From: a virus
Lineage: Duplodnaviria; Heunggongvirae; Uroviricota; Caudoviricetes
DNA: 18,628 bases
Virus record (IMG/VR): IMGVR_UViG_2731957842_000007
Span: 1 to 18,628 of that record
Reading direction: 5' to 3' (one strand)
How positions within the stretch are numbered: position 1 is the stretch's first letter; each line of letters opens with the position of its first letter. Below are positions 1,009-18,427 of this stretch, piece by piece. The notes beneath the pieces are model-generated. The model was not told the DNA's origin and did not search any database. It saw nothing but the letters and a program-made list of their open reading frames with translations. A program made the translations under genes and the position numbers.

Positions 1009-1083
1009 GTCCTCTTAGTTAAATGGATATAACGAGCCCCTCCTAAGGGCTAATTGCAGGTTCGATTCCTGCAGGGGACACCA
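1009..1083 (+). tRNA. argW: tRNA-Arg (anticodon CCU), 75 nt with encoded CCA end
   Basis: Cloverleaf readable in sequence: acceptor stem GTCCTCT/AGGGGAC, anticodon loop CTCCTAA (anticodon CCT), T-arm GCAGG-TTCGATT-CCTGC, 3' CCA. An integrase gene follows 160 bp downstream. Confidence 0.9.
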
Positions 1084-1245: not shown

Positions 1246-2402
1246 TGCTCACCGTTAAGCAGATTGAAGCAGCAAAGCCGAAAGAAAAACCATACCGCCT
1301 TCTCGATGGTAATGGCCTGTACCTTTATGTCCCTGTGTCAGGGAAAAAGGTATGGCAGCTTCGCTACAAGATTGACGGTAAGGAGAAAATCCTGACCGTC
1401 GGAAAATATCCGCTTATGACTTTGCAGGAGGCAAGGGATAAAGCATGGACCGCGAGGAAAGACATCTCGGTTGGCATCGATCCGGTAAAAGCGAAAAAGG
1501 CTTCGTCTAACAACAATTCCTTTAGCGCCATTTACAAGGAATGGTACGAGCACAAGAAGCAAGTCTGGTCAGTAGGCTATGCAACTGAACTTGCCAAAAT
1601 GTTTGATGACGACATTTTACCTATCATCGGCGGCCTTGAAATTCAGGATATTGAGCCTATGCAACTGCTGGAAGTAATCCGCAGGTTTGAAGATCGCGGT
1701 GCAATGGAGCGAGCCAACAAAGCACGCAGAAGATGCGGCGAGGTTTTCCGTTACGCTATTGTCACTGGTAGGGCTAAATATAACCCGGCACCTGACCTTG
1801 CTGACGCCATGAAAGGATACCGCAAGAAGAACTTCCCGTTTCTTCCTGCAGACCAGATCCCTGCATTCAACAAAGCACTGGCAACATTTTCAGGAAGCAT
1901 CGTATCGCTCATTGCGACTAAAGTTTTGCGCTACACAGCACTAAGAACGAAAGAGCTTCGCTCTATGCTATGGAAGAACGTCGATTTTGAAAACAGGATT
2001 ATCACTATCGACGCCAGTGTGATGAAGGGACGCAAAATTCATGTGGTTCCTATGTCAGACCAGGTGGTTGAACTTCTCACTACGCTAAACTCAATCACCA
2101 AACCAGTATCAGAGTTTGTTTTTGCCGGGCGCAACGATAAGAAGAAGCCAATTTGCGAGAACGCTGTACTGCTTGTGATCAAACAAATCGGCTATGAAGG
2201 TCTGGAAAGCGGTCACGGATTCAGGCATGAATTCAGCACGATTATGAACGAGCACGAATGGCCTGCTGATGCTATTGAAGTGCAACTGGCACATGCCAAC
2301 GGCGGATCTGTGCGCGGGATTTACAACCATGCTCAGTATCTCGATAAGCGCAGAGAAGTGATGCAGTGGTGGGCGGATTGGATTGATGAAAAGGTGGAGT
2401 GA
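1245..2402 (+). CDS. intS: Tyrosine site-specific integrase (phage integrase family), 385 aa
   Basis: Starts MLTVKQIEAAKPKEKPYRLLDGNGLYLYVP; C-terminal catalytic region contains R...HGFRHEF...Y motifs. The ORF-track GTG at 1209 is rejected in favour of the ATG at 1245, which gives the expected 385 aa length for the argW-associated integrase. Confidence 0.9.
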   Translation: MLTVKQIEAAKPKEKPYRLLDGNGLYLYVPVSGKKVWQLRYKIDGKEKILTVGKYPLMTLQEARDKAWTARKDISVGIDPVKAKKASSNNNSFSAIYKEWYEHKKQVWSVGYATELAKMFDDDILPIIGGLEIQDIEPMQLLEVIRRFEDRGAMERANKARRRCGEVFRYAIVTGRAKYNPAPDLADAMKGYRKKNFPFLPADQIPAFNKALATFSGSIVSLIATKVLRYTALRTKELRSMLWKNVDFENRIITIDASVMKGRKIHVVPMSDQVVELLTTLNSITKPVSEFVFAGRNDKKKPICENAVLLVIKQIGYEGLESGHGFRHEFSTIMNEHEWPADAIEVQLAHANGGSVRGIYNHAQYLDKRREVMQWWADWIDEKVE

Positions 2403-2417
2403 TCCACCTTTTCTGTT
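2393..2417. terminator. Bidirectional rho-independent terminator between the convergent int and tailspike genes
   Basis: Stem GGTGGA (2393-2398), loop GTGA, stem TCCACC (2403-2408), followed by TTTTCTGTT on the plus strand and preceded by AAAA (a T-run on the minus strand); overlaps the int stop codon. Confidence 0.5.
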
Positions 2418-2419: not shown

Positions 2420-4414
2420 TTATTCAGCCTTAGCAAAAGTGGTCATAGTTGTTCCACTGAAAGTGAATGACCTGTCTGTAAGAGTAACATCCTGAATAGC
2501 AAAGTAATCGCCAACACCAGCGCCATTTACATAAAACTCGAATATCTCAGATGTATTTTCCGGAATAATATTATTAGCAATATAACACGTAGATAAAGAA
2601 CCATTTGTTGATGGTAAAGTTCCAAATAGCGTTGCATCCGATGCAGCATATATCGAACTGCTTAAATAAATATTTATATCAACATTACTCTCATAAGTAA
2701 CAATTAAGTACACCCGGTCGTTAACCTTCCACCCTCTGTCTTTTATCTTAGTATTAAGTGATAGCTTGTTAGAACTAGGGGTCGTTACGGTATTAATGGT
2801 TATTTTTGCTCCTATTGAGTTGTATCTGCTTCTGGTTACTGTATTACCAGTATTGTTCATTGTATAAAGGATTGCTCTGCTTTCTGCAAACGTCCTCATA
2901 TTAATCTTGCCTAAACAATCTCCTTCCATAACTTGTGGGCCAGACACAGTTGCACCAATATAACAATTAGTAAATACAGCATGAGCCCTGTTGTCAGTGC
3001 TTGATGCAAGTAATGAAAGTTTAAAGTTGCCCTGATCTGCAATCCAGCAACTATCAACCTTAACTACAGCATCATTGTCAAGAACAACAAACCTTCCTCC
3101 CTCATTGTAATATCCTACAAAAGCATTTACACCGCTTATTTTTACTACTCCATCTGGAACCGTAAAGATATCGCCTTGTATCGCTTCGCCATAGTACCCG
3201 CCAACAATATTGGTCACTCTGGTATTTAAGTACATGCCATGCCCAATGCCGAACTCAAGGTCACATCCAATTAAGCTTAAACCTTCAATAGGGGAAGTAC
3301 CAGAAGCATAAAAGGCATATTCACCGACCTTATTTGATGCAAATCCACAGTTATTGAACGTTACGCGGTTGTTAGCCCCAGCAAGGTGAACTCCGCGATT
3401 TGGCGCAGGAACAAAAGAACAGCAATCATAGGTATTAAGCCAGTCGTTTATAGTATAGAAGTTCGCCACCACGCCATTGATGAAACGACAATTATGGGTT
3501 CTTCCTAGGTGAACATATTGAATTCGGCAAGCATAGTTGGCGATGTTGTTCCCATCAACTGTAACGTGAGAGATAGATGTGCTACGTCTTATAGAGTCAG
3601 TTTCGTAGTACATGTTGACAACTGTCTCTCCAGTGAACCCACTCCCCGCAATAATGAATGACTTCTCAACGCCATCCCCGAATAGGTCAACAGTGCCTAT
3701 TGTTAAATCAACTGGTGACTTAACATAGTAAGTTCCTGCAGGGACAAACAGCCTCTTTCCTGCCGATAAAGCAACTGCTGCAGCAGCATTAAAGCTAGCT
3801 GAGTTATCTGCCGCTGGATCACCAGTAATGGGGAAAAATTGAGCAACAGAAATATAATCTGCTACCGTCACTTCGTACCATGGCAAAGCAGGAGATGACG
3901 GAAGAGTGCCACTACCACCGGTGTAGATTTTATTATTATACCACCACCAGTTATCAACATTAGATAACACCCCCTCCTGCCACACCCCCCCTAACGAGAA
4001 ATCAAGACCGTAAGAAGTAGCTATCTGACTTAATGATAATGTTGCTCCTCTGTCAGAAGCTAATTCTTGCCTTAATTGGTCAGGGTCATACTTCAGCACA
4101 TTAGGAAAATAGAACTGCTGTGCACCATACGCATCATAAACAGCCATAGAATGGCCTTGCACAGTTACGAACTTGGCAATCTGTCCGTTATATACCGGAT
4201 ATCCAGCAGCGTTAATGATGATTGGTTGCGAAACAGGAACGTGAGAGCCGTCTTCGTTCTCCACATAAACCTGAATCTGGTTTTCAGGATTTACAGGGTC
4301 AGTGTCAATTTTACCGATATAAATTTTGCCATTGGCTACGGCTTTAAAAGAACGAGCCATAGTGAAGAGTTGCGAAGGCATGCTTACCACAACATTTGCG
4401 GTGATATCTGACAT
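2420..4414 (-). CDS. Tailspike protein: P22-like N-terminal head-binding domain fused to a divergent C-terminal receptor-binding domain (probable glycan depolymerase)
   Basis: N-terminus [60 protein letters not shown] matches the conserved head-binding domain of P22 gp9-type tailspikes; the remainder has no P22 gp9 similarity I can see. Start placed at ATG 4414 (GGAG 9 nt upstream) rather than the ORF-track start at 4462. Confidence 0.85.
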
Positions 4415-4439
4415 TTCATTGCTCCAGACGAATGATATG

Positions 4440-4462
4440 ATGCAACCATGATGTGGTTGCAT
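4440..4462. promoter_or_regulatory. Palindromic operator-like site ATGCAACCA-TGATG-TGGTTGCAT in the tailspike/mnt divergent intergenic region
   Basis: 9 bp inverted-repeat arms around a 5 bp spacer; overlaps a TTGCAT -35-like hexamer (4457-4462) oriented towards mnt. Fits a ribbon-helix-helix repressor operator. Confidence 0.45.
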
Positions 4463-4535
4463 ACCGAAATGGTACTATTGAGTATTTATCCAGTAGGTTA
4501 CGATGCCATTCCACCCAACTGGTGAGGCATCAAGG

Positions 4536-4802
4536 ATGTACAGCAAATACGACGAGGCGCAGTTTCACTTGAGACTTCCGCATGAACTCCACGCGAAAAT
4601 TAAACAGCGCGCGAAGATGAATAACAGGTCGCTGAACTCAGAGATAATTGCAGCGATTGAAGAATCATTGGCTAAACAAAGCTCTGCATCCGTTTACATT
4701 GACGATGCAGAGCGTATGGCAGAACAACAATCTGATATGGTTAAGAAAATGGTTTTTGAAACGCTTAAGACCATGTATAGCAATAATAAAAAGGAAACAT
4801 AG
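4536..4802 (+). CDS. mnt: Mnt-like ribbon-helix-helix (Arc/MetJ family) repressor, 88 aa
   Basis: FHLRLPHELHAKIKQRAKMNNRSLNSEIIAAIEESL is a ribbon-helix-helix N-terminal fold; C-terminal DAERMAEQQSDMVKKMVFETLK resembles the P22 Mnt C-terminus as I recall it. ATG at 4536 with GGTGAGG 8 nt upstream; ORF-track start 4503 rejected. Confidence 0.7.
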   Translation: MYSKYDEAQFHLRLPHELHAKIKQRAKMNNRSLNSEIIAAIEESLAKQSSASVYIDDAERMAEQQSDMVKKMVFETLKTMYSNNKKET

Positions 4803-4872
4803 AAATCTAGTTTCCGGCTAAAATGGCATTGCCTTCATGATATCCTGTGAAAAACTAAGGAGAGTTAACCAT

Positions 4873-5358
4873 ATGAAAAAATCACTGTTAATTATCCCGC
4901 TTCTGCTGGTTGGATGCGCAAAAGTAAGTGACTATCAAGCAAGTTGCGAACAACGCTATCAAAAGCTTAGCGATATGGCTAATTGCCTTGATGCCAGAGT
5001 GAAGAACGACTCACGCATGGCATCAGCACCAACACCTAAGCTATATGTCCTTGCTGCAAAGATGCTCGGGCAAGGTGTCGATGAAGGCAAGATAAGTGAC
5101 GCACAGGCAAGACTTGAGCTTCAGAATCTTTATGTTCAATTACAAAGCCAAGAACAAGCCCAACAAATAGCACAAAGCCAAGCATTCCAGCAGGCTTTAT
5201 TGAATTATCAGGCTGTAAACACAATGCAAGCGATCGAGCAAAAAGCGAGACAGCCTGTTATAACTCAACCCTATCCAACACGAGTTGACACTTACACAAA
5301 CTGCAATTCAGGATTTGGAAACACCGTCACATGCAACAGTAGCAGCAACATTAGATAA
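4873..5358 (+). CDS. Predicted lipoprotein with Gln-rich C-terminal region, 161 aa; candidate superinfection-exclusion or moron protein
   Basis: MKKSLLIIPLLLVGC has a signal peptide and lipobox (LVGC); strong RBS AAGGAG 10 nt upstream of ATG 4873; occupies the position where P22-like phages carry sieA/immI genes. Confidence 0.7.
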   Translation: MKKSLLIIPLLLVGCAKVSDYQASCEQRYQKLSDMANCLDARVKNDSRMASAPTPKLYVLAAKMLGQGVDEGKISDAQARLELQNLYVQLQSQEQAQQIAQSQAFQQALLNYQAVNTMQAIEQKARQPVITQPYPTRVDTYTNCNSGFGNTVTCNSSSNIR

Positions 5359-5360
5359 AG

Positions 5361-7475
5361 CTATTCATATTCATTCATACCGCTTAACGAGGCGACAATA
5401 CCAGCTCTCGACAAGCGATTGAATTCATCGCTACCAATAGCATCGCGTATTGCTTTTACGGCGGCTTTATTTGCCATAAATCGGCGTTCCGCCGCCGCTA
5501 ATGCTTCTTTACTTCCGCCAGCTCTTACTGCTTTCGTGGCTTCCTGAACTGCTTTCTCTATCGCATATCGGCCGCTACGAGTGGTGGCAATTTTAGATAC
5601 AGCACCTTTTAACCCGGCGCCAACTAAAGCACCTGCGGCAGCGCCTGCAATGCCACCTCCTGCTCCACCAACAATGGCACCTGATGTTGAGTTGGCAATT
5701 GCATTTAACACTGTTGATGTGATGTTGGATAAACCGGCATCCAGATCGCGTAGTACATTGGCAGTTCTCCCTGTTCTTTCAATATACTGCTGAGGTTTCA
5801 CTGCTGCTCTTGCAAGAGTGCCATATACATCAGCAATTCTTCCGAGTTCTGAGGAATATCTGCTAATGGCTTTTACATTTTGTGGGGTAAGTATCCCTGC
5901 GATATGGTTAATTCCTGCTGCATCAGCTTTGCCACCACGTACACCATGCGAGATAGCATCTTGCAACATTGATGATATAGCAGGAACACGCTCTGATTCT
6001 GGCAGCGCGCGGATCATAGAATGGAATCCAGCAGGACCATTAAGACCTTTAGCTGACGATGCTTGAAGAGATTTTACTCCATTCGTAATCAGTGCATCTG
6101 TTGCCAAATCACGCCCAAAAACAGACTCTGCACTCTCTTGTGCGGACAGCCTCGCTTTAGACAGATCATTAGCTTTTTGCCAGTCATCAAAAAATCCGCC
6201 GTTTTCCGCCATTGTGCGCATATCATCAGTAATTGCCCGACGTATTTCCCCTGCTCTCCTTGCCGCATTTGCCTCTCCGCTACGCTTATATTTTTGCTCC
6301 GCATCAGCAAATTTCGCTCTCCATGCTTTCATGCCATCAAATGTTACTCCACCTTGATTGTTTGCCTGAACAAACTGTTTCATTTCAGGAGTAAGCGGTA
6401 TGCCAGCAGATCGCTCTGCCTGAATAACGGCATTACCATTTAGCATTCTTGCTTTTTGATTTGGCATTGTTGACCGCACGTCATCCCATGCCGCGCGCTC
6501 GGCATCCTTCATCTGATCAAGATTTTGAAGAATCCTTTGTTTTATAGCCGCACTTTTTTCTGATGCCGTTCCAGATGCGGCCCCAAATTCATCAAGGTTT
6601 CGACTTAACTTTGATGATATTTCGTTAAATGCTGCCTGATGGGCGTCCTGAACAATTCCTGGTGTTGATGCCAATGCGCCTTCGGCTTGTGCAATTCCAC
6701 GACTTCCAGATCGCATTCCTGGTGTTAATGCGTTTATATCAATTCCAGCAGACTCAGCCGCTTTTGCTACATCTTCGGACACATTAGCGGCCTGACTGGC
6801 AATTGACTGACGCCCAGCACCTGACTTTGCCATCCTGGAAACATCATTAGCAGAATTCAGTGCTGCACCACCAAGAGCCTGTGAAACCCTTGGCGCAATA
6901 ACGCGCCCGACACCTGAAAGAACGCCTTGAGCACCAATATTGATACCACCGTTAATGGCAGCATTTTGTGCAAAATCACCCTCCTGATTTGCAGCATCAG
7001 CAAGAGAACCTGCAATCATGTTTCCTGCGGAACCGATATCTCCAGCGAGCTTTGCTGGCGCTCCAGCAGCTTTTGCCGCTGTGCCAATTGGCAGGAGATA
7101 CCCACCAATTGTTTCACCGGCTTGCGCATAAGGGTCTGTCGGTCGATCGACTGGACGATAGACATCATCCAAAACCTTGGGGCCACCAAGCCCCTGGCTG
7201 ATTGCATTAATCAGACTTGCGCCACCCTGCAATACGTCAAATGGTATGTTTACCAGACCACGGCCAGCCTGTTCTGCAATTTGCCCTGCGCTTTGACCAC
7301 CAGTGAGCCAGTCAGTGGCTTTTCCTACCAGAGATTGTTCTTCTGGCTGCGATTGGTTTTGAGTGGATTGATCACCAGAAGACAGCATCTGAGCAATGCG
7401 ACGTGCTCCCTCAGTATCGCCGGCAGCATCAGCATTCCTTAACGCCGTCATCAACTGTTCGCGACTATAGGCCAT
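5361..7475 (-). CDS. DNA ejection/transfer protein, P22 gp16-like, 704 aa
   Basis: Third gene of a 7-20-16-like ejection operon on the minus strand; Gly/Ala-rich; start overlaps the stop of the upstream gene. Confidence 0.65.
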
Positions 7476-8749
7476 TACTGCCCTCCGAGATATTTATTAA
7501 TCAGGTCATCATCAGAAAGCTGCTGTTGAGACGGTTGTATGTCCTTCCCGTATTTCTGTTGCATACGTTTCTGAGCCATCTCAGTGGTTTTTATGATTGT
7601 TTTGATGGCTGCTCTGGCTGATTTTTCAGACTGATTTGGGGACAAACTACCAATAGCATCCATTACCTTTTGCCCCTCGGCATTACTTAAAGCCCCCATC
7701 CCTTTCATCTGCTGAATGCCAGATAAGAATCCCTGAGATTTCAGTGTGTCAACCAGAGTTTCTGTATCAGCAGCCTCTGTTCCTGGAATGAATCTACTCG
7801 ATAGTGGGTTTAGGTTTGTTCCGAAATATCCAGTGAATCCCGGGCTATTAAGAACTTTTGTAGCCGTCTCTATCGTTCTGGAAAGATTATCCATTCCAGA
7901 GTTGTACGCATCAGCCTTATCTCGCTTTGCCTGCTCCATAGCTTGCTGATTCTGCAATCTCTTGTCCTGCAATTCAGCAAGTTTTAAGGCATTAGTTTCA
8001 TTTGCGATGAGTCTGTCGTATTTCTTGTCCTCTAATTCCATCCGACGAAGATTGACATTTTGTTGCGCAATATTGTTGCTTGCCCACCCTCTGGCATTTG
8101 TCATGTCATTATTACGGATTGTTTCGTTAATTTTTTGCTGATCCTGCTGGCGACCAACCATCTTATCCTGAACAGCAAACGCCTTTTCTGGTCCAAGCGC
8201 ACCGAGAGACATAGTAGTCAGCATGTGTGATAGCTGCTCTGGATTCTGGATACCTGTCTGAATCATCCAGTCAGCATTAGCACCAACGCGATTTAACCTG
8301 TCCTTGTTGTCAGTAATGAATTTGCTGTAGGCTTCCGGTCCCTGAGAAAGAGCGACGTTAGCCCTCATGGCTAAATCGCCCATATCGTTGCGTTGCTGAT
8401 CATTAAGACCGGAAAACGCCTGTTGTGCCTGTGCAACAAACGCTGGATTTTCCTGGGCAAACTTAAATAGTCCCGATGGATCACCAGAAGCCCATGCATC
8501 AGCATGAACCTTATTGAACGCATTAATCGCTTCCTGTTGCTGTTCCTGCTTATAAATATCAGCAACTCCAGCCAGACCACGTAACGCGGTCAGACCAACG
8601 TTATTTGCACCTGAGCGAGCCAGTTCATTGTTTTCGCGGATCAGACCAAGCGTTGCGTTAATGTCGCTTGCCTTTGGCGCATTCTCATTTTGCGTACCGA
8701 TGCCAGCCAGAAAACCACCAGAATTAATACCCTGTTGCCACGTAGCCAT
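7475..8749 (-). CDS. DNA ejection/transfer protein, P22 gp20-like, 424 aa
   Basis: Position between gp7-like and gp16-like genes; Gln-rich low-complexity segments typical of ejection proteins; GGGG RBS upstream of ATG at 8749. Confidence 0.65.
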
Positions 8750-8759
8750 TGATTACCCC

Positions 8760-9452
8760 TTAAAACAACGAGCCAAGCAGACCAAGACCGCCTCCGATCG
8801 CAGCCCCCCACGGAGTTGATGAACCAATTAATTTCGCAAGTCCGGCCCCAGCAATAGCACCAGACGCACCTCCGCCAATAGCAGATTGCATTGCTGATGG
8901 TCTGTTGGCATTTGCCGCTGCAAGAGCCGCACTTTGCTGCGAAATCTGACTCATGTTGTTGGCATATGTCTGCCCGGCGTTTGCCTGACCTTGCAGTGCG
9001 CCAAGACCAATGTTTGCCAGATTCTGGTAGTTGTTCATCTGACCAGACAGCCACTGCTGACCAAGCGTTGGTGCGATTGTTGCTAACTGATTACCGGTTG
9101 CAGTGGAACCCAATCCACCTGTTGCTTCCGCTGCCGCCAGACTCTGATAGCGAGCCTGACCAGCAAGATCTTTGTACTGCTGAGAGTTGTAATACTGGTT
9201 TAGCGCCTGACCTTGCCCATCCAGAGACGATAAGTTCTCGAGGCTGCCGACATACTTCTCAGCCAGAGGAGTAAACGGTTTCAGGTTGTTCATGATGGTG
9301 TTGAACTGCTGATTTTGCAGGTCTGCGGCATACTTCTGAGCTTCTGCTGCATACTTTGCGCTTTTATCAGAACTGCCACCTTTCCCGCCTTTTTCAGGGC
9401 AATAAGGTTCCTCGCCGCGCAGTTTTCTGCCCAGCTTAAATGCATATAACAT
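8760..9452 (-). CDS. DNA ejection protein, P22 gp7-like, 230 aa
   Basis: MLYAFKLGRKLRGEEPYCPEKGGKGGSSDKSAKYAAEAQKYAADLQNQQFNTIMNNLKPF closely matches the P22 gp7 N-terminus as I recall it; length matches gp7 (229 aa). Confidence 0.8.
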   Translation of the reverse strand: MLYAFKLGRKLRGEEPYCPEKGGKGGSSDKSAKYAAEAQKYAADLQNQQFNTIMNNLKPFTPLAEKYVGSLENLSSLDGQGQALNQYYNSQQYKDLAGQARYQSLAAAEATGGLGSTATGNQLATIAPTLGQQWLSGQMNNYQNLANIGLGALQGQANAGQTYANNMSQISQQSAALAAANANRPSAMQSAIGGGASGAIAGAGLAKLIGSSTPWGAAIGGGLGLLGSLF

Positions 9453-9454
9453 GG

Positions 9455-9913
9455 CTATCTCCCGTGATTCAGGAAGTCGATTAGTTCTTCGCGTGTGGCG
9501 CTGTAAAAAGTCACGTCATCCACGCCTTTAAAGTATTTCTTGATGGTTCCTACACGATTAAGGCCAATCATTGCGCAGTAAATCTGCCCGTGGCGGAATT
9601 TGCGTGCGGCGAACGATGTGACGCACTGAACGGTGGTGTTAGTCAGAATGTATCGCCAGAACGCCAGCCCGATTTCCTTGCTGAAGCCACGAACCTCTGG
9701 CAGGTACATGGCGTGGCAATCGAATGTCAGCGGCTGAATCTCCTGATAGTAAACAATGCCGCCAAACTGACCGTACACGTTAACCTCAAAGTAACGGCAT
9801 TCAGGCTTGTAGTCGTATCCATCACCGTTGTTGCTTCCGGCAATAATGTCAGGGTGATTTCCGACTGCTTCGATCAGGTCGATGTTTCGCGTTGGTTTGA
9901 ACTGAATCATCAC
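9455..9913 (-). CDS. P22 gp14-like protein, 152 aa
   Basis: [35 protein letters not shown] matches gp14 of P22-like phages; sits between the needle and gp7 genes as in P22. Confidence 0.7.
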
Positions 9914-10758
9914 TGCTCCGCGATTATCTTGATGGTTGTGGCAGTAAACGCCGCACCATTCGACTGAATGGTTAACGTGCTGCCATTTGTGGCAAGAAAG
10001 CCGTCTTTATCCACGCTGAAGAACGTAGCTAACAAGATGTTATCGGTTGTTGTCGCCGAGTTGCGACTGCTTACCAGTGTGTCAGGAACAGAGCCGGAAA
10101 AGGTTAGCTGCATTGACCTGTTTGCGGTTCCGCTGGGCCACGTCCCGACAATCGACAGCTTGAAGAACAGGGTTTTGTTCTCGTTGAACACAACCATCTT
10201 GTTGTTAACGGTGTCGAAGAATGGTGCCAACGAGCCGGATGACGGCGTGAGCGTTTTCAGCAGGCTAACAAGGTTGGTCGGCGCTGTCGGGATGGTTACT
10301 GATACGCCAGAGTAAACAACCTCTGACTTCTTGCGTGTGGTTGCATACTCCAGAGCATCAATGCGCGTTTCATGGTCTGAAACCTGCGACTCCAGCGACT
10401 GAAGTCTGGTATCAAGCGACGCAATATCGCTTTCATTCTGAGTGATTCGTGTTTCATGTTCCTGAAGAGTTGATTCTGCCTGACTGATTCGCTCCTCATG
10501 ATTAACAAGCGTTGCTTCCGCAGCAGAAATTCGCTGCTCATGGTCAGCGAGAATCACATCCTGCTCATCGTTCCTGACTTGTGCGTCATAAGCGCCCTGT
10601 CCGGCCTCGTTGGCCTTGTTAGCCACGTTACCAACATCAGTGCCCTGTGCGATAACGTAAAGCAGATACGACTGCGAGAAGATATTGCGTGGAAGGACTG
10701 ATGTGTCGAGCCGTGTAGCCTGAATGATTACCGGCACATTGAGATTCGAATCCGCCAT
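9910..10758 (-). CDS. Tail needle protein, P22 gp26-like, with a divergent C-terminal knob domain, 282 aa
   Basis: N-terminus [43 protein letters not shown] matches the conserved gp26 N-terminal domain; central heptad-like repeats ([43 protein letters not shown]) fit the trimeric coiled-coil needle; C-terminal 120 aa differ from P22. Confidence 0.8.
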
Positions 10759-11552
10759 TACTCAATCCTTATCTGAGCGCCAGACAGAGTGACAGGTGAC
10801 TTCGTGATAACGCGCAATTTGAAACCAATGTTTTTCCTGATGCGCCCTACTTTCTTCCACAAAACGCGTTTGTCGTAAACGAACGGTTCATTCTGCTCAA
10901 TCATCTGCTCACGCCCGTAATTGATGCCGTCAGTGGTTGCAGAGAGGAACAGGCGGTCGGCGTACTGAGCTACGCCAGTGGATGATTCCACCTCCAGATC
11001 GAAGCATCTGGCGTTATCCGCTTTGAACAGTGGAGTAAACAGCAGGTGTTCCTGTTGCTTGTCGTACTGGCTGCTGATATCGAACTGCAATTTCCCGGTC
11101 ACGGACTCCAGCTTATCGCCGCACGTTATCTGATTGCCTTCATAAATGAAGTCGATAGCGCGGTACACATCGTCATACAGGCCTGTTTTCAACACACACC
11201 ATTGCGGACCATTGGCGCTTGAAGATGCGTCGTACACGAGGACGTGGCGCGGAAGGTGGATAATCAGCAGTTCATGCGCATCAAATCGCAGCGATTCCAT
11301 CACACCATCAGCCAGTTCATCAGCAGTGTAGGAGCGAAGAATTTTCTCAATGCTCGCGCTGGCGATTGGTGATACCTGACCTGATCCGATGATGTATACA
11401 GACGGCGCACCCGTTGCCGGATTGCTGATAAACGCATACGAATCAGCGAATGGCGTTTTGCAGTAAGTTCCGGCAATGCCTTTCTGCACCATCAGCGATG
11501 GTTGTGCGACATACAAAGCGGCACCATCGGAGGTCAACATGACAGTAGTCAT
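10758..11552 (-). pseudogene. 5'-truncated gp10-like tail accessory gene (C-terminal 264 codons only), at the deletion junction
   Basis: Occupies the gp10 position upstream of gp26; P22 gp10 is about 470 aa but this ORF is 264 aa. The codon immediately upstream of its ATG (11553-11555 on the minus strand) is TAA, and its first codons are antisense to the start of the N-like gene. Confidence 0.6.
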
Positions 11553-11846: not shown

Positions 11847-12317
11847 ATGACAAAATCATGGAGCGTACCTTTTCCTGAATCAGAAACTGAACATGATGGA
11901 ATGCCTGTTTTCTGGAGATTCCAGGCGACAGTTGAAGAAGATGGGATAAAAATATTCGCACTTCAATATATAGCTTTTCATCAGACAGAGCATTATGCAT
12001 GGTTGGTTCCTGCGCATTGGATTGTTAATTTTAAACCAGCACCAAATCAGTGGTTACAGGAATGGAAACAAAGGAGAAATAGATATGCAATTAAGAAAGT
12101 AGCAAAAAATGCAGAAAGATCTTTTGCATTCCCAACGAAGAAACTTGCCATTGAGAGTTTATTGCGCCGGAAGAAATACCATTTAATGAGAATCAAACAA
12201 GATTTGGCTGTTGTATCAACTCTTGTTGATGGGATGAAGAATATTGATACATCAACACCAGATATTGAATATAACTTTGGACACAACCAAGAAACAGAAA
12301 ATTGGGTATTCTACTAG
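11847..12317 (+). CDS. Hypothetical protein, 156 aa, in a visibly A+T-rich segment; moron candidate
   Basis: RBS GAGGTGAG before ATG 11847; Trp- and Lys-rich soluble protein with no family I recognise; followed immediately by a terminator. Confidence 0.6.
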   Translation: MTKSWSVPFPESETEHDGMPVFWRFQATVEEDGIKIFALQYIAFHQTEHYAWLVPAHWIVNFKPAPNQWLQEWKQRRNRYAIKKVAKNAERSFAFPTKKLAIESLLRRKKYHLMRIKQDLAVVSTLVDGMKNIDTSTPDIEYNFGHNQETENWVFY

Positions 12318-12341
12318 GCCGCATAGTCGGCCTTTATTTTT
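12317..12341 (+). terminator. Rho-independent terminator after the 156 aa ORF
   Basis: Stem GGCCG (12317-12321), loop CATAGT, stem CGGCC (12328-12332), followed by TTTATTTTT. Confidence 0.6.
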
Positions 12342-12363
12342 GGCATAAACAACAGAGGCTAAC

Positions 12364-12660
12364 ATGGAATTTAAAGGTACTGAAGGTAAGTGGGAAATAA
12401 TGATGGATGGCGATGAGATTAAAATCATCCAGGCAGACTCACTTGAAAATGGCGCAGGCTGGCGTTCGTATATTGCAATCTGTGAGGAAGTTCAATGTAT
12501 TGAAGATGCCAATCTAATAGCGGCAGCACCTGACCTTCTCGAAGCACTTCAGTTATTACTTAAGCAATCCAAAAATAGAACAACGACAACATATCCAGAA
12601 TGGTATGGAGCTGTTAATAAAGGTCTTGCAGCAATCAGCAAGGCTCTGGGAGGTGAATGA
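12364..12660 (+). CDS. Hypothetical protein, 98 aa
   Basis: ORF with an AGAGG RBS-like element upstream; its stop overlaps the start of the next ORF (ATGA), indicating translational coupling. Confidence 0.5.
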   Translation: MEFKGTEGKWEIMMDGDEIKIIQADSLENGAGWRSYIAICEEVQCIEDANLIAAAPDLLEALQLLLKQSKNRTTTTYPEWYGAVNKGLAAISKALGGE

Positions 12661-12869
12661 TGTGCGAGTTTTATGAAGCAGATATCAAACGCCCAGAAAT
12701 GGCAAGTGATGCGACATTACGTGATTACTTCGCTGCTAAGGCTATGGCAGCAATAGTGCGCAGATGGGACGGACATTCCTTTGGCGGTGGACAGAATTCA
12801 CCACAGTACAAAGAATTAGCAGATGATGCCTACTTTATTGCTGATGCCATGCTCAAAGCTCGCGAATAA
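12657..12869 (+). CDS. Hypothetical protein, 70 aa, translationally coupled to the upstream 98 aa ORF
   Basis: ATGA start/stop overlap at 12657-12660; no recognisable family. Confidence 0.45.
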   Translation: MMCEFYEADIKRPEMASDATLRDYFAAKAMAAIVRRWDGHSFGGGQNSPQYKELADDAYFIADAMLKARE

Positions 12870-12964
12870 GCACTGTGTATTCATTCCAACGAGTGAATAC
12901 ACGGAGCAATGTCGCTCGTAACTAAACAGGAGCCGACTTGTTCTGATTATTGGAAATCTTCTTT

Positions 12965-12992
12965 GCCCTCCAGTGTGAGGGCAATTTTTTTT
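12965..12992 (+). terminator. Rho-independent terminator upstream of the coiled-coil gene
   Basis: Stem GCCCTC (12965-12970), loop CAGTGT, stem GAGGGC (12977-12982), followed by AATTTTTTTTT. Confidence 0.55.
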
Positions 12993-13004
12993 GATGGAGG
13001 ATAT

Positions 13005-13973
13005 ATGAGTGAAGTAACAGATTTAGTTGTTATTGAAAAAGCAAATGCAATGACTGTATTTCAGTCTGCCGACCAGATTGAAGAAATCCTTCAAAAGGTA
13101 GAACGTGAAGTTATGTCCTTTGTGCCTGATATCACAACGGCAAAGGGCAGAAAGGAGGTCGCTTCTCTGGCGTATAAAGTTGCGCAGACGAAAACATATC
13201 TCGATGGTCTTGGCAAAGACCTTGTTGCTGAACTGAAGGAAATTCCAAAGCTAATTGATGCCAACCGCAAGACAGTGCGCGATCGCCTTGATGAACTGAA
13301 AGCCAAGGCACGCCAGCCTCTTACTGATTATGAAGAGGAACAGGCGCGGATTAAAGCTGAAGAAGAAGCTAAGGCAGCAGCTGAAGCTCTCGCAAAGCAA
13401 ATTGAGTCTGACCATGAAATAGCGATTTTGATGGATCGCGAATTTGACCGCCAAAGAGAAGAGGCAAGACTCAAAGCGGAGCAGGAAAAGCGAGAGCATG
13501 AAGAACGCTTAAAAAGAGAAGCTGAAGAGAAAGCCAGAGCTGAAGCCGAAGCAAAGGCAAAAGCCGAAATTGAAGCAGCAGCAAGGCGAGAAGCAGAAGC
13601 TAAGGCCGCAGCGGAACGTGCAGAGCGTGAACGCATTGAAGCCGAGCAACGAGCACAGCGCGAAGCAAAAGAGGCAGCAGAACGAGCTGAAAGAGAAAAG
13701 CAGGCAGCAATTGAAGCAGAACGCAGAAAAGCACAGGAGGAGGCTGAACGAATCCGTCGCGAGGTTGAAGCAAAAGAGCAAGCCAGAATAGCAGAAGAAA
13801 AAAGAATCAAGGAAGAAGAAGAGCGTAGAGCAAAGGATAAAGCTCACCGGAAAGAAGTAAATAACAAAATACTTGCTGACCTTATCAAGGTTGGTGCATC
13901 AGAAGATGTTGCTAAAAATATCATAACAGCCATCGTAAAAGGCGAAGTATTCGCAACAAAAATAACCTACTAA
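13005..13973 (+). CDS. Hypothetical coiled-coil protein with a long Glu/Ala/Lys/Arg-rich repetitive central region, 322 aa
   Basis: ATG 13005 preceded by GGAGG; the ORF-track start 12909 lies upstream of the terminator and is rejected. Central 200 aa are AEAKA/EAERR-type repeats; globular N- and C-terminal segments. Confidence 0.6.
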   Translation: MSEVTDLVVIEKANAMTVFQSADQIEEILQKVEREVMSFVPDITTAKGRKEVASLAYKVAQTKTYLDGLGKDLVAELKEIPKLIDANRKTVRDRLDELKAKARQPLTDYEEEQARIKAEEEAKAAAEALAKQIESDHEIAILMDREFDRQREEARLKAEQEKREHEERLKREAEEKARAEAEAKAKAEIEAAARREAEAKAAAERAERERIEAEQRAQREAKEAAERAEREKQAAIEAERRKAQEEAERIRREVEAKEQARIAEEKRIKEEEERRAKDKAHRKEVNNKILADLIKVGASEDVAKNIITAIVKGEVFATKITY

Positions 13974-13997
13974 TAAAACCAACATAAGGAACCACCC

Positions 13998-14129
13998 ATG
14001 ATTTACGCAATCGCGGGAGGAGCTCGCATGGGTGCCTTCCAACTAAATGAATCTTTACTTGAACGAATCACCCGTAAATTACGTGACGGATGGAAAAGAG
14101 TTGAGGTCTTATTATGCGCAATGAAATAG
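13998..14129 (+). CDS. cIII-like small protein (FtsH protease inhibitor family), 43 aa
   Basis: MIYAIAGG...ESLLERITRKLRDGWKR matches the conserved core of lambda CIII as I recall it; AAGGA RBS upstream; located upstream of erf as in lambdoid PL operons. Confidence 0.5.
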   Translation: MIYAIAGGARMGAFQLNESLLERITRKLRDGWKRVEVLLCAMK

Positions 14130-14266
14130 CCATCAATCACCAGATGCTTCGTGCTGCACAGAACAAAGCAGTAATAGCCAGATTTATTGGTGATTCAAAA
14201 ATGTGGCTTGAAGCAAATAAAGCGATGAAATCAGCTATCAACCTTCCGTGGTATCGCAGGAAATGA
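14114..14266 (+). CDS. Kil-like small protein (putative), 50 aa
   Basis: IARFIGDSKMWLEANKAMK resembles the lambda Kil family from memory; start overlaps the cIII-like ORF, and its stop overlaps the next start. Confidence 0.35.
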   Translation: MRNEIAINHQMLRAAQNKAVIARFIGDSKMWLEANKAMKSAINLPWYRRK

Positions 14267-14421
14267 GTTTCACAGATAACTGGTCAGACGAAGAATTCAT
14301 TCGTCAGATGAAAGAATTAATCGGTAACGAAGGAGATATTCATGTCACTTGCAACCACAGTGAAGGAGAGCAAGTTACAGAGACGCATGTACACGCAGAA
14401 AGCTCTCTGGTATCGCCATAA
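14263..14421 (+). CDS. Hypothetical small protein, 52 aa
   Basis: Chained by ATGA overlap to the upstream small ORF and lying directly upstream of erf; no family recognised. Confidence 0.3.
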   Translation: MSFTDNWSDEEFIRQMKELIGNEGDIHVTCNHSEGEQVTETHVHAESSLVSP

Positions 14422-14522
14422 TGGTGACCGCGAAGGAATGCGGGTATGCCTTAATTTGTCCCGAGTCGAAGTATTAAATCAGCGTTATTTCCTTGGGCCG
14501 TGTCCATTCTGAGAACAATCAT

Positions 14523-15128
14523 ATGAGCAAAGAATTTTACGCAAGACTGGCAGCTATTCAGGAGAATCTGAACGCGCCAAAGAATCAGTACAACTCATTC
14601 GGCAAATATAAATACAGAAGCTGCGAAGATATTCTTGAAGGCGTTAAGCCGTTACTGAATGGTCTGTTTTTATCAATCAGCGATGAAGTTGTGTTGATTG
14701 GTGATCGGTATTACGTGAAAGCCACGGCAACTATTACCGATGGCGAAAACAGTCATACGGCAACTGCTCTTGCACGAGAGGAAGAAAGCAAGAAAGGAAT
14801 GGATTCTGCACAAGTTACTGGAGCTACAAGCTCTTATGCGCGCAAGTATTGCCTCAATGGTTTGTTCGGCATTGATGATGCGAAAGATGCAGATACCGAC
14901 GAACATAAACATCAGCAGAACGCAGCAGCAAAGCAATCAAAACCATCACCTACACCTGAACAGGTTCTAAAAGCATTCACTGACGCAGCAATGCAAAAAA
15001 ACACCGTGGAAGAGCTTAAACAGGCGTTCGCCAAAGCGTGGAAGATGCTCGAAGGAACACCGGAGCAGCACAAAGCGCAGGACGTTTACAACATCAGACG
15101 AGACGAATTAGAAGGAGCTGCTGCTTAA
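14523..15128 (+). CDS. erf: Erf-family single-strand annealing recombinase, 201 aa
   Basis: MSKEFYARLAAIQENLNAPKNQYNSFGKYKYRSCEDILEGVKPLLNGLFLSISDEVVLIGDRYYVKATATITDGENSHTA matches P22 Erf as I recall it. ORF-track TTG start at 14493 rejected in favour of ATG 14523. Confidence 0.85.
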   Translation: MSKEFYARLAAIQENLNAPKNQYNSFGKYKYRSCEDILEGVKPLLNGLFLSISDEVVLIGDRYYVKATATITDGENSHTATALAREEESKKGMDSAQVTGATSSYARKYCLNGLFGIDDAKDADTDEHKHQQNAAAKQSKPSPTPEQVLKAFTDAAMQKNTVEELKQAFAKAWKMLEGTPEQHKAQDVYNIRRDELEGAAA

Positions 15129-15511
15129 TGGCACATTCGATTACTGTAAGACTAAACAAGCCCGCAAGAGAGTTTCAGGCCGGGGAAAATATCGGATTCA
15201 ACATCCGTGCTGGCGTTCAGTATTACGATCGCCAGACAAAAAAGAAAGAATGGACAAACTACAGCGCCGTTGTATTTGCCAAGCCGGGAGCGCAAGCGGA
15301 TTACTACCGTAGTGTTCTTGTTGAAGGTGGCATTGTGGAAATTACCGGAGAAAACATCAGGGTTGATGTTTATCAGGGGCAAAATGGTCAATCAATCACT
15401 CTTGAATTACTGAATGCAAAGATTGGATTTGCAACTTCAGGAAACAGCCAACAGCAGCAAAGTAGCAATCATCAAAATCATCCTGAATACGACGATTCAA
15501 TCCCCTTCTAG
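15128..15511 (+). CDS. SSB-like single-stranded DNA-binding protein with an acidic C-terminal ...DDSIPF tail, 127 aa
   Basis: ATG overlaps the erf stop (TAATG); the C-terminus EYDDSIPF matches the conserved SSB tail motif (DDDIPF); the N-terminal region is compatible with an OB fold. ORF-track start 15038 rejected. Confidence 0.6.
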   Translation: MAHSITVRLNKPAREFQAGENIGFNIRAGVQYYDRQTKKKEWTNYSAVVFAKPGAQADYYRSVLVEGGIVEITGENIRVDVYQGQNGQSITLELLNAKIGFATSGNSQQQQSSNHQNHPEYDDSIPF

Positions 15512-15534
15512 ATTAGCAAAATAAGGATTCCATT

Positions 15535-15828
15535 ATGCCAGCGCCTCTGTATGGTGCGGATGACCCGCGCCGCTGTTCCGGCAATTCCGTATCGGAGGTG
15601 CTGGATAAATTCAGGAAAAACTACGACCTGATAATGTCTCTACCGCAGGAAACGAAAGAGGAAAAGGAATTTCGCCATTGTATATGGCTTGCAGAGAAAG
15701 AAGAACGCGAGCGAATTTACCAGACATCAATCCGCCCATTCCGCAAAGCCACATATACCCACTTCCCTGAAATTGACCCGCGCCTGCGTAATTACCGCTC
15801 ACGCTATGGCGCTATCAGTAATGACTGA
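15535..15828 (+). CDS. Hypothetical protein, 97 aa
   Basis: ORF with an AAGGA RBS-like element upstream of ATG 15535; no family recognised. Confidence 0.45.
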
Positions 15829-15838
15829 GGAATTTACC

Positions 15839-16003
15839 ATGAGAGGACTTGCATACAATCCCGGCATTCTTCCGGCAGAAATGATTATTCGCCAACGCGT
15901 AAAGCCAATGCCATCGAGAGAGGAATTGCTTAAGAGAAATTCTTTTCCATCAGTGAATCAAAACAAATATCTGAATGCGATGTTGCGGAGTGGGAAGAAA
16001 TGA
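15839..16003 (+). CDS. Hypothetical small protein, 54 aa (alternative start at 15821)
   Basis: GAGG 8 nt upstream of ATG 15839; its stop overlaps the next start (ATGA at 16000-16003). The 5' part of the ORF-track ORF 15689..16003 overlaps the upstream gene and is rejected. Confidence 0.3.
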
Positions 16004-16476
16004 AACAAATGTCACTAATTGAGATGGATGGATTCCTGAAAGGTAAATGCATCCCCCGAGATTTAAAGGTTAACGAAACAAACGCTGAATATCTGGTGCG
16101 TAAATTTGCTGAAGCGGAGGCCAAGTGCGCGGAGATGGCAGCGGAAAATGCGGGGCTGAAGTCTGGCGCTATGGACGAAATCAAGGTTATCAACCGTGGA
16201 GGGCAGGCATATTGCGTAAAAGATGGAGTGCAAGTTAATCCCATATATGCAAGAGGGTGGAATGATTATCGCGCAAAGTCTATGCAATCAGACACCCCAG
16301 CCACCGATGCTTTCCTGGCTGAAGTCAGGGCTAAGGCGTTTGATGACCTTTGCGCGGCGTTCGTTAAGCACGCGTCGGTGTCCGGGCTGGACGATGGCGA
16401 CTGCGTTACGGTGAAAGAGGCGACTGACGCCCTGCTGCATTGTGCGGAACAGCTTCACAAGGGAGTGCATTCATGA
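16000..16476 (+). CDS. Hypothetical protein, 158 aa
   Basis: Translationally coupled on both sides (ATGA overlaps at 16000 and 16473); no family recognised. Confidence 0.5.
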
Positions 16477-16706
16477 GCAACCTACTACCATGTCCATTCT
16501 GTGGCGGTGCAGCGCACGTTGCCAGCGAAGCAGATCACCCTGAATATGGCTCTGGCGGTCGATTCTATTTCGTTCGATGCGGTACGTGTCGCGCTCAATC
16601 TGGTAGCAAATATGCAGCGCCTGGAAATGACTGCGCGATTTTTTATTCAGAGGTTAGAGCAGAGTGGAATCAACGAGCAAAGGAGGCGAACAGTGAGCAA
16701 GATTGA
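16473..16706 (+). CDS. Lar-family restriction alleviation-like protein, 77 aa
   Basis: [12 protein letters not shown]...CGTC contains the CPFCG-type Cys motif characteristic of Lar-family small proteins; ATG overlaps the upstream stop. ORF-track start 16440 rejected. Confidence 0.5.
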   Translation: MSNLLPCPFCGGAAHVASEADHPEYGSGGRFYFVRCGTCRAQSGSKYAAPGNDCAIFYSEVRAEWNQRAKEANSEQD

Positions 16707-17268
16707 CTATCAGGCACTGCGTGAGGCGGCGCAGAACGCGAAAGATTTAGGTGGGATTAAGAATTACAAGCGAGGCGAGCAAGCTGTTGCCGAATTTGAG
16801 TCCCTGATAACGCCACACATTGTGCTGGCACTGCTGGATGAACGGGAAAGAAACCAGCAATACATCAAACGCCGCGACCAGGAGAACGAGGATATTGCGC
16901 TAACGGTGGGGAAACTGCGTGTTGAGCTGGAAGCCGCAGAGAAGCGCAACGCAAAATTACAAAGCGAGAATGCATACATCCGCAACCGGTACAAAGAACT
17001 GGACCTGTTAATCGGGAAAAACATTCTGGTCATGCAGGCTGCGATTATCGAATGGCAGGCAACTGGCGACGCTAAGAGCGGACTGGCATGGATTTATAAC
17101 ACACTGTTTGGCCCTGGCGAATTGCCGGACGAATCTGAGAAAGATGCTCAGGCCTACTTTAATCGCAAATATGCACCGATTGACGAAAAGCTTATGGAGC
17201 TTCACAAGTGGTTTTGGGAACAAAGTGAAGCCGAGCGCGCCGCCGGCATTCGCATCAAAGGAGAGTGA
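16693..17268 (+). CDS. Hypothetical coiled-coil protein (possibly Ead/Ea22-like), 191 aa, GTG start
   Basis: AGGAGG 6 nt upstream of GTG 16693; the ORF-track start at 16501 would overlap the Lar-like gene for 200 bp and is rejected. Confidence 0.5.
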   Translation: MSKIDYQALREAAQNAKDLGGIKNYKRGEQAVAEFESLITPHIVLALLDERERNQQYIKRRDQENEDIALTVGKLRVELEAAEKRNAKLQSENAYIRNRYKELDLLIGKNILVMQAAIIEWQATGDAKSGLAWIYNTLFGPGELPDESEKDAQAYFNRKYAPIDEKLMELHKWFWEQSEAERAAGIRIKGE

Positions 17269-17269
17269 T

Positions 17270-17920
17270 ATGAGCACTATCACTAAAGAACGTATCGAAT
17301 TGTTCATTAAATCCCCGCTTGAAAACGGACTTACTCGTGGCGAACAAATGGAACTGGCACGAATTGCACTGGCATCACTGGAACGCGAACTGATTCGCCA
17401 CGAGCATGCCAAATGGTCTGACTCCACATTTGGCTGCGTTGGCCCTATTGGTCCGCTGAAACATCTCTCAAAAGAGGCACTGGAAGCCGCAGCCGAACCA
17501 GACGATCTTAGCGAGTGGGCTGATATGCAGTTTCTGTTGTGGGATGCACAGCGCCGTGCTGGCATCAGCGATGCTGAAATTACCGCTGCTATGGAAGATA
17601 AATTGAAGATCAACATGGAGCGCCAGTGGCCTGAGCCAAAAGATGGTGAGCCTCGCTTGCACATTAAAGAACCCGGCAACTATCCGGTAACTCCGGATGG
17701 TTGGATAAGCTGTAGTGAGCGAATGCCTGAAAAGAATCGGAACGTGCTTATTTCGGTGAATTTCGATAGCTCTCTGGTTGAACCGCTAATATGCTCCGCA
17801 CGCTATACCGGAAGCACCTTTCGGCGCGGAGATGCAACGATTAAGCCGGGTAATGGTATTGAGCAAGCAACTCACTGGATGCCGCTACCGGAACCGCCGC
17901 AGGAGGTAAACCGTGGCTAA
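17270..17920 (+). CDS. DUF551-like phage protein, 216 aa
   Basis: AAAGGAGAG RBS, ATG 2 nt after the upstream stop; C-terminus ...PDGWISCSERMPE...THWMPLPEPP resembles the DUF551 signature. ORF-track start 17108 rejected. Confidence 0.55.
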   Translation: MSTITKERIELFIKSPLENGLTRGEQMELARIALASLERELIRHEHAKWSDSTFGCVGPIGPLKHLSKEALEAAAEPDDLSEWADMQFLLWDAQRRAGISDAEITAAMEDKLKINMERQWPEPKDGEPRLHIKEPGNYPVTPDGWISCSERMPEKNRNVLISVNFDSSLVEPLICSARYTGSTFRRGDATIKPGNGIEQATHWMPLPEPPQEVNRG

Positions 17921-17982
17921 CCTGCAACTTGCCGTCAAAGGTGAATAACAATCCTCGCACTCGCGGGGATTTCTTTTATCTG

Positions 17983-18007
17983 AACTCGCTACGGCGAGTT
18001 TTGTTTT
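17983..18007 (+). terminator. Rho-independent terminator
   Basis: Stem AACTCGC (17983-17989), loop TACG, stem GCGAGTT (17994-18000), followed by TTGTTTT. Confidence 0.55.
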
Positions 18008-18019
18008 ATGGAGATGATT

Positions 18020-18319
18020 ATGGCCTGTTCAACATTCAACCCTCTAACGTTACAGAAATACCAGACAGACCCTGAAGATTTATGCTCACTGTGTGGCGGA
18101 AATCATGGCAAAGCCGCCATGATCGAATGTAAGGACAAAATCCACATATGCCTTAATTGCGTTGATGTCCTCGTTGATATCAAAAATGAAAGAGAAGATA
18201 AAAAGCGTAGCGAGGCTATTCGCGCCTTAGATTCATGGATGCGAGATGGGTATAGTGCTGCGCAAATTTATGACTTCGCAATATCAAAAGGCGAAATACC
18301 AGGAGTGCGCATCGAATAA
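18020..18319 (+). CDS. Hypothetical Cys-rich (CxxC...CxxC, putative zinc-binding) small protein, 99 aa
   Basis: GGAG 6 nt upstream of ATG 18020 (alternative in-frame ATGs at 18008 and 18014); motifs CSLCGG and CLNC. Confidence 0.45.
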   Translation: MACSTFNPLTLQKYQTDPEDLCSLCGGNHGKAAMIECKDKIHICLNCVDVLVDIKNEREDKKRSEAIRALDSWMRDGYSAAQIYDFAISKGEIPGVRIE

Positions 18320-18361
18320 GACGTAACCAATATTCGAATTGAAGAACTGAAAGAACACCAA

Positions 18362-18383: not shown

Positions 18384-18392
18384 TTGCCTGAT

Positions 18393-18408: not shown

Positions 18409-18427
18409 CTATTCGGAGATAGCACTC

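Follow-up and report, generated by a model that had tools for sequence, protein, structure and literature searches.

Organization of the argW element

The window analyzed here, a stretch of 18,628 nucleotides (nt) from IMG/VR record IMGVR_UViG_2731957842_000007, holds nearly all of an element of ~17.6 kb that is bounded by attachment (att) sites and lies at the tRNA-Arg gene argW of Escherichia coli. The element is a remnant of a P22-like phage of the Sf6/CUS-3 type, not a functional member of that group. Six tail and ejection genes, encoding the tailspike and the gp16-, gp20-, gp7-, gp14- and gp26-like proteins, are intact, while gp10 is truncated and the head genes are gone. The initial annotation had offered two explanations, a recent deletion or selection to keep the module, and only the first of these is supported. 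The element is very probably an ordinary cryptic P22-like prophage inactivated by a recent deletion, with late genes that are intact because the event was recent and that are most likely silent and neutral. Selective retention of the module is unsupported.

The element bears the marks of site-specific integration into a tRNA gene, with argW, a 16-nt direct repeat, and an IntS-type integrase and a TorI/Xis-like gene at its two ends (Table 1). The attL core is the 16-nt 3′ end of argW (positions 1069–1084, CTGCAGGGGACACCAT). In the parent contig, L008, this 16-mer is repeated 74 nt past the window's end; it is also found after torI in strain VG48B2. The identical integrase protein is recorded in other E. 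coli.

Between attL and attR, searches with Pfam, PHROG and tblastn gave no coat, scaffold, portal, terminase or gp4 gene, which confirms the earlier statement that this prophage cannot make capsids. The same interval lacks the rest of a complete virion and life-cycle set, including the lysis genes, gp23, the replication genes and c2/cro. Nor does the element resemble a phage satellite such as P4, a phage-inducible chromosomal island (PICI) or a capsid-forming PICI (cf-PICI): Pfam, PHROG and PADLOC searches of all open reading frames (ORFs) found no primase/replication, repressor, terS or capsid-remodelling gene. PADLOC detected no defence system in the window, and Rfam detected the tRNA alone, with no sar-like RNA.

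Table 1. Features of the window, with positions counted from its first nucleotide
Feature	Position	Strand	Evidence
yfdC (host gene)	1-933
tRNA-Arg(CCT) argW	1009..1083	+	ARAGORN and Rfam
IntS-type tyrosine integrase, intact, 385 aa	1245..2402	+	Pfam Arm-DNA-bind_3, Phage_int_M, Phage_integrase
GC-rich hairpin, terminator-like, between the convergent int and tailspike genes	2388..2413		Consensus scan only
Tailspike, 664 aa	4414-2420	-	Pfam Head_binding PF09008, E = 2.8e-67, aa 1-113
Pmnt-like promoter match (CTGACA, 17 nt, AATGAT), then palindrome	4408..4462	+	Promoter scan, sequence reading
Mnt-like ribbon-helix-helix repressor, 99 aa	4503..4802	+	Pfam Arc and Repressor_Mnt
Lipoprotein-like moron, 161 aa	4873..5358	+	PHROG 6067 (unknown function); MKKSLLIIPLLLVGC lipobox-like N-terminus
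gp16-like ejection protein, intact, 704 aa	7475..5361	-	PHROG 770 'DNA transfer protein'; PF26808 on called gene
gp20-like ejection protein, intact, 424 aa	8749..7475	-	Pfam Inj_translocase
gp7-like ejection protein, intact, 230 aa	9452..8760	-	Pfam P22_gp7
gp14-like assembly protein, intact, 151 aa	9910..9455	-	Pfam DUF2824
gp26 tail needle, Sf6-type knob, intact, 282 aa	10758..9910	-	Pfam Phage_tail_NK
gp10 remnant, ~255 C-terminal codons	10758..11526	-	Pfam Phage_stabilise, profile positions 212-469 of 469
Deletion junction	11525..11528		Three-way alignment
N-like antiterminator, 99 aa	11539..11838	+	PHROG 271; exact protein on record
Rest of early-left (PL) operon	11847..18628	+	PHROGs, VG48B2 annotation
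erf	14493-15128	+	PHROGs
abc2	15535-15828	+	PHROGs
TorI/Xis-like excisionase	18428-18628	+	PHROGs

A single junction joins gp10 to the N gene

The N-terminal ~210 codons of gp10 are deleted, and tblastn aligns the rest to residues 215–472 of intact gp10. No other pseudogene is present in the element, in agreement with the initial annotation, which had named gp10 as the only truncated gene. A 264-amino-acid (aa) ORF can be read through the fragment; its first ~8 codons read the N gene in antisense, and no Shine-Dalgarno motif precedes it.

The junction was mapped by aligning the window with an intact gp10 from VG48B2 and an intact c2-PL-N region from KSC207. There is a single junction, at 11526/11527, with gp10 on one side and a point 12 nt upstream of the N start codon on the other, leaving gp10 joined head-to-head to the N ribosome-binding site. 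At the crossover the two parents share only the dinucleotide CA, and this 2-nt microhomology is a signature of illegitimate recombination. Flank matches in E. coli genomes agree with the alignment, those on the N side beginning at 11525 and those on the gp10 side ending at 11526–11534. In KSC207 the repressor gene and an intergenic region of ~300 nt lie directly upstream of N, and this stretch is absent from the window.

Compared with relatives of 38–40 kb, some 22 kb appear to be missing. The losses comprise the N-terminal half of gp10, gp4, coat, scaffold, portal, both terminase subunits and the lysis genes, as well as gp23 and the late promoter, the nin and replication genes, cro, c2, PL/OL/nutL and PR. 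The N gene retains its Shine-Dalgarno motif and has lost PL, OL and nutL. The two remaining arms diverge from the junction, neither with a promoter of its own.

The source is a draft short-read assembly, and a Logan contig from SRR2070767 stops before the junction, as might be seen if the join were an assembly artefact and the real prophage were complete. We regard this as very unlikely. The contig with the junction is recorded in four samples and runs unbroken from host flank to host flank, with its att repeats, and since only 2 nt are shared between the two sides, no repeat collapse could make the join.

Tail and ejection genes have intact reading frames

The six genes lie on the minus strand in frames without internal stops. 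A Shine-Dalgarno motif is present at the start of each, and stop/start overlaps of the TAATG/TGATG type occur at three junctions (gp10′/gp26, gp26/gp14 and gp20/gp16), as the earlier description of uninterrupted frames with sensible starts and coupled overlaps had it. By their Pfam and PHROG matches, the gp14-gp7-gp20-gp16 block and the gp26 needle stand in canonical order with coupled starts. The lengths of gp20, gp7, gp14, gp26 and the tailspike equal those of their orthologues, and gp16 has 704 residues compared to 702–703. Sister contigs, sought via the gp16, gp20 and tailspike proteins and cited here by L numbers, include length-matched orthologues beside head genes, in L006, L009–L013 and L015 for gp20 and in L017 for the tailspike.

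Copies that are identical or nearly so occur in other prophages. Fifteen contigs carry an identical gp20 protein, and head genes are present in 7/10 of those among the matches listed; relative to copies beside head genes, the window gene differs by three synonymous changes. gp16 shares 99% identity with its counterpart in the prophage L009, which has head genes. At the nucleotide level, gp7 is 100% identical to L007 and L014 and gp14 is 100% identical to the VG48B2 copy. gp26 is 96–97% identical to L012 and L001.

The tailspike combines a familiar head-binding domain with an unusual receptor part. Its N-terminal domain matches the Sf6 and P22 tailspikes in the PDB, and PDB matches are confined to residues 1–122; the receptor part has no relative by sequence in that database. 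A weak Pfam match to Pect-lyase_RHGA_epim indicates a pectate-lyase-like receptor domain. For window positions 2420–4060 (residues ~119–664), tblastn gave no match in 50,697 phage records. The identical 664-aa protein is found on 12 contigs, including L017, in which the late operon from coat to tailspike is present, and the same allele occurs in at least five prophage contexts, at argW and at ybhC-bioA. A longer tailspike ORF of 680 aa, starting at 4462, was rejected, as its 16 leading codons are spurious and the true start is at 4414.

In several related prophages an HNH/NUMOD4 homing-endonuclease gene lies just upstream of gp10 (L007, 6048–8139; L010, 6048–8139; L011, 5551–7642; L014, 1992–4083; L017, 1838–3929). 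These genes are bordered by a duplicated 34-codon stretch of the gp10 5′ end, with 93.8% identity across the 32 codons that align. In L011 another HNH gene follows gp10. Homing endonucleases seem to have invaded the tail-hub genes of these related prophages.

Distribution and age of the lesion

The window is 100% identical over its 18,628 nt to MIVK01000048.1 (GCA_001748545.1), recorded in four samples. None of 5426 complete E. coli genomes has the junction. A 31-nt junction pattern, ACAAAGCGGCACCATCGGAGGTCAACATGAC, was scanned in GTDB species representatives, JGI metagenomes and IMG/VR and was found in none of them. As an exact protein, the chimeric 264-aa gp10 ORF has nothing on record, because gene callers skip it. 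The junction is thus restricted to one identical contig lineage, and vertical inheritance of the remnant across divergent hosts was not seen.

The host flank is similarly informative. The yfdC-argW segment (positions 1–1083, 1083 nt) is 100% identical in four sampled genomes, three of which have an empty argW and one CPS-53. Because this identical flank is mostly accompanied by an empty argW, the phage would have arrived, and then been crippled, within a very shallow host lineage. Together, the single clean junction, the clonal distribution, the empty argW in three of four identical-flank genomes and the identical gene copies elsewhere bear out the recent deletion proposed at the outset. At E. 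coli substitution rates, a neutral stretch of 9 kb would be expected to wait centuries for any substitution and far longer for a disruptive one. The intact frames therefore need no selective explanation.

The VG48B2 element (L001, 4245–24986) lies in a similar setting. Its host flank up to intS, 1208 nt, is 100% identical to that of the window, and its intS differs from the window's by three synonymous changes only. The VG48B2 remnant is a different mosaic, with a gp7 that is 79% identical, ant and arc genes, IS421 and IS2 insertions and a truncated coat gene at its junction. Either two phages entered near-identical hosts or there was extensive recombination in place.

Substitution pattern

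A comparison of non-synonymous with synonymous substitution rates (dN/dS) across strains had been suggested as a check on selection. We calculated Nei-Gojobori proportions (pN and pS) for each gene against 10–12 other prophages. The pN/pS ratio was 0.03–0.12 for the tailspike, gp16, gp20, gp7, gp14 and gp26 genes and 0.03–0.08 for the non-functional gp10 fragment. Measured against about 20 other loci, the window lineage has 45 synonymous and 12 non-synonymous private changes, the counts for the gp10 fragment being 4 and 2. Truncated gp10 serves as an internal control here. Because this dead fragment is as low as the intact genes, the purifying signature would be inherited from a functional-phage past and predate the deletion. 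The ratios are low, as selection would have them, but dN/dS between prophage copies reflects phage history rather than host selection and cannot diagnose the latter.

Fate of P22-like prophages at argW

Contigs found via tail proteins keep the tail genes by design and are unusable as evidence of retention. We replaced them with a spread set of 20 complete genomes, located through the host flank yfdC-argW. At argW, 12 of these have no integrated element, one has CPS-53, two have other IntS phages, two have other islands and three have P22-like elements. None of these three has capsid genes; all keep integrase-proximal late genes and have a damaged tail/ejection module. In ETEC4075, gp26 and gp4 are truncated and the annotation lists none of gp14, gp7 and gp20. 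In strain 119 the tailspike and gp16 are missing and gp26 is cut short, with gp20, gp7 and gp14 kept. In Z1323CEC0015, IS100 is inserted in gp20 and gp7 is truncated. Capsid-less architecture is the usual fate of P22-like prophages at this site, and the module decays once the prophage is dead.

Remnants found through the tail proteins have deletion ends at many points. In VG48B2 the deletion ends at residue 250 of coat, with an IS421 insertion in addition, and in L007/L014 a truncated DnaB gene is joined to the 3′ end of coat. The deletion of UMNF18 ends at residue 110 of gp7, and its gp16 is frameshifted. In L018/L019/L023, at the ybhC-bioA site, gp26 is joined to xis at residue 238. Of these junctions, those of L019 and L007 were searched, and neither is present in the 5426 complete E. 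coli genomes. Deletion ends interrupt genes without regard to functional units. With attP between int and xis, the tail end of the late operon adjoins int at the edge of the prophage and the lethal and regulatory core is central. Among the remnants with readable regulatory ends, the repressor gene is kept in UMNF18 and L007 and has been lost with PL and PR in the window, VG48B2 and L019. This pattern, in which the repressor is kept or is lost together with the promoters, would reflect a requirement for lysogen viability.

Two of these remnants show further features. In UMNF18 (L016, AGTD01000001.1, 7371–9598), gp7 is cut at residue ~110 and placed beside the c2 repressor gene, and gp16 has a cluster of changes in which a 1-nt deletion shifts the frame. 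The frameshift could be real decay or an error of an old assembly. The intergenic stretch beside c2 may hold PR facing gp7′-gp20-gp16-tailspike. L019 (CAJSTM010000031.1, 3147–13170) is a composite remnant at ybhC-bioA, in which a lambda-type int and xis are fused to gp26 at residue 238 and a split IntS-type integrase lies at the tailspike-side end. The tail arm of L019 shares 99.8% identity with that of the argW remnant in UMNF18, suggesting transfer of the arm by recombination between prophages at different sites.

Expression of the module and the case for selection

On the minus strand, no promoter-like site was predicted from 2447 to 12000 by a consensus scan. A tailspike-specific (Pant-like) promoter was sought in 4415–4502, and only the match in the mnt direction and a palindrome were present. 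Transcription of the late operon of P22-like phages, tailspike gene included, starts at the late promoter and requires antitermination by Q/gp23 (PMC2629481). Judged from the sequence, the late genes kept here are most likely silent. With the late promoter and gp23 removed and no minus-strand promoter predicted, a co-resident phage would have nothing to trans-activate. Since the lysis genes have been deleted along with them, the element would have no means of independent expression and release.

The retained set is also structurally incomplete. In P22, gp4, gp10 and gp26 add in sequence to the portal of the filled head, and gp26 needs gp10. During procapsid assembly gp14 helps to incorporate the ejection proteins gp7, gp20 and gp16, and tailspikes attach to the tail hub once it is complete. 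The retained set lacks gp4, an intact gp10 and a capsid, and would not be expected to assemble into anything or to be self-sufficient. By analogy with P22, it would be unable to form a tailocin, unlike the tails of myoviruses and siphoviruses.

The initial annotation had raised selection for the tailspike's enzymatic activity. The tailspike alone might be kept as a glycanase acting on the surface polysaccharide of the host or its competitors, with the ejection genes hitch-hiking. Its ORF is intact and includes a domain of pectate-lyase-like catalytic fold, and all remnants found via tail proteins keep the tailspike, although the detection route ensures that they do. An extracellular enzyme would have no route out of the cell, however, as the tailspike has no signal peptide (by inspection of its N-terminus) and the holin and endolysin genes are deleted. 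No promoter specific to the tailspike is predicted, and the remnant of strain 119 has lost this gene yet keeps gp20, gp7 and gp14. Such a role is hardly to be expected.

A second form of selection would keep the whole module for the benefit of other phages or the host, either as a recombination reservoir that offers superinfecting P22-like phages a new tailspike or different ejection-protein alleles, or through tailspikes that decorate the capsids of a co-resident phage. Flanks for exchange do exist, the head-binding domain having about 90–94% DNA identity to many P22-like phages and the gp16-gp14 region 97–98%, and the presence of one tailspike allele in at least five contexts at two integration sites indicates that it moves by recombination. 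Temperate phages acquire DNA from defective prophages (PMC3945230), and tail-fibre genes are enriched in incomplete prophages (PMC7744054). Rescue by recombination, though, profits the phage rather than the host, and would occur without any selection on the remnant. Trans-activation would lack a late promoter or a target for the activator, the junction was seen in one clone only, and older remnants lose or break the module, as with IS100 in gp20, the truncated gp26, the missing tailspike and gp16, and the frameshifted gp16 of UMNF18. We consider selection on the module improbable. Capsid-less remnants beside IntS could also be a recurrent functional state, either a host-range reservoir whose silent cassette superinfecting P22-like phages acquire by recombination through the head-binding domain and the gp16-gp14 flanks, or a source of tailspikes in trans during co-infection. 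If so, remnants, each of them short-lived, would influence the host range of phages in E. coli populations, but we think this quite improbable. With promoter and activator gone, lysis lost, no signal peptide and older remnants decayed, selection for a helper phage or for a tailspike enzyme, as first suggested, is not borne out.

Four points weigh against a recent deletion followed by neutral evolution. The promoter scan is a crude consensus search and may miss weak or non-sigma-70 promoters and read-through. On whether a P22-like phage is co-resident, our view of the source genome is confined to one contig. All copies of the remnant are identical, giving no power to gauge selection after the deletion. 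Finally, the statistical enrichment of tail-fibre genes in incomplete prophages is read by some as a host benefit (PMC7744054).

We nevertheless favor the recent deletion, which would have proceeded as follows. A P22/Sf6-like temperate phage integrated at argW in E. coli, and one illegitimate-recombination deletion of ~22 kb, from gp10 codon ~210 to 12 nt before the N start, would then have killed the prophage. Two promoterless arms facing apart would have been left, gp10′-gp26-gp14-gp7-gp20-gp16-tailspike on one side and the PL operon from N to xis on the other. The deletion was presumably viable because the repressor was removed together with both early promoters. As the late operon would be silent after the loss of repressor and promoters, the left end of the deletion could fall anywhere in it. 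Only int, mnt and the lipoprotein moron are likely to be expressed. The late genes would now evolve neutrally and can be expected to decay as those of older argW remnants did.

mnt, the moron and the early-left arm

The mnt gene directly adjoins the tailspike gene, and arc and ant are both absent. At about 4441–4461, between the Pmnt-like match and the mnt start, lies a near-perfect palindrome, TGCAACCAtgatgTGGTTGCA, which is a candidate Mnt operator. The functional phages Sf101 and IME10 have the mnt-tailspike junction at 98% identity. In both phages mnt is annotated as 'partition protein ATPase', a label that PHROG 795 shares and that looks like a misannotation.

The 161-aa moron occupies the position of sieA in P22 and is oriented opposite to the late genes. 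Neither Pfam nor PADLOC gave a match to it, and its DNA is 94% identical to phages Gally and vB_EcoP-720R6. We regard it as a candidate lysogen-expressed gene, perhaps for superinfection exclusion.

Downstream of N, the early-left operon includes, by PHROG matches, an SSB-like gene and Ead/Ea22-like genes, and gene calls on the identical contig add cIII and kil. An Ead/Ea22-like ORF at 16501–17268 (plus strand) matches the PADLOC model 'DpdH' over ~100 residues (E = 3e-36); this is probably a common domain rather than a defence gene.

Comparison with known systems

The closest functional relatives are Sf6/CUS-3/HK620/Sf101-type phages (Lederbergvirus relatives), which integrate at argW and have the same order of genes 10, 26, 14, 7, 20 and 16, followed by a moron region and the tailspike. 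Like them, the window has an Sf6-type needle knob, the same kind of tailspike head-binding domain and an IntS integrase beside the tailspike end, and DNA identity over the shared parts is 88–95%. It differs from them in the missing ~22 kb and in a tailspike receptor part without counterpart in the 50,697 phage records.

CPS-53 (KpLE1) of E. coli K-12 occupies the same site, has IntS and TorI at its ends and, like the window element, is defective by internal loss. It is far more decayed and has no P22-type tail or ejection genes, whereas the window has a single lesion with gp10 as the sole pseudogene. The window element is much younger than CPS-53.

The capsid-less remnants of VG48B2, UMNF18, ETEC4075, strain 119, Z1323CEC0015, L007/L014 and L018/L019 share with the window an internal deletion of the head, lysis and regulatory core and the retention of late genes near the attachment-site end (beside intS in the argW elements). 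Each has its own junction. Five of them (ETEC4075, 119, Z1323CEC0015, VG48B2 and UMNF18) carry insertion sequences, frameshifts or secondary deletions, inside the tail/ejection module in 4/5, and the window has none.

The relevance of the element beyond correct annotation is small. It illustrates the textbook inactivation of a lambdoid prophage, in which one deletion takes the repressor, both early promoters and the lethal core, and it cautions that intact-looking phage genes in a remnant should not be taken as domesticated. Incomplete prophages are enriched in tail-fibre and integrase genes and have lost replication, packaging and lysis genes (PMC7744054). The argW element is of this already known kind and does not depart from the published pattern.

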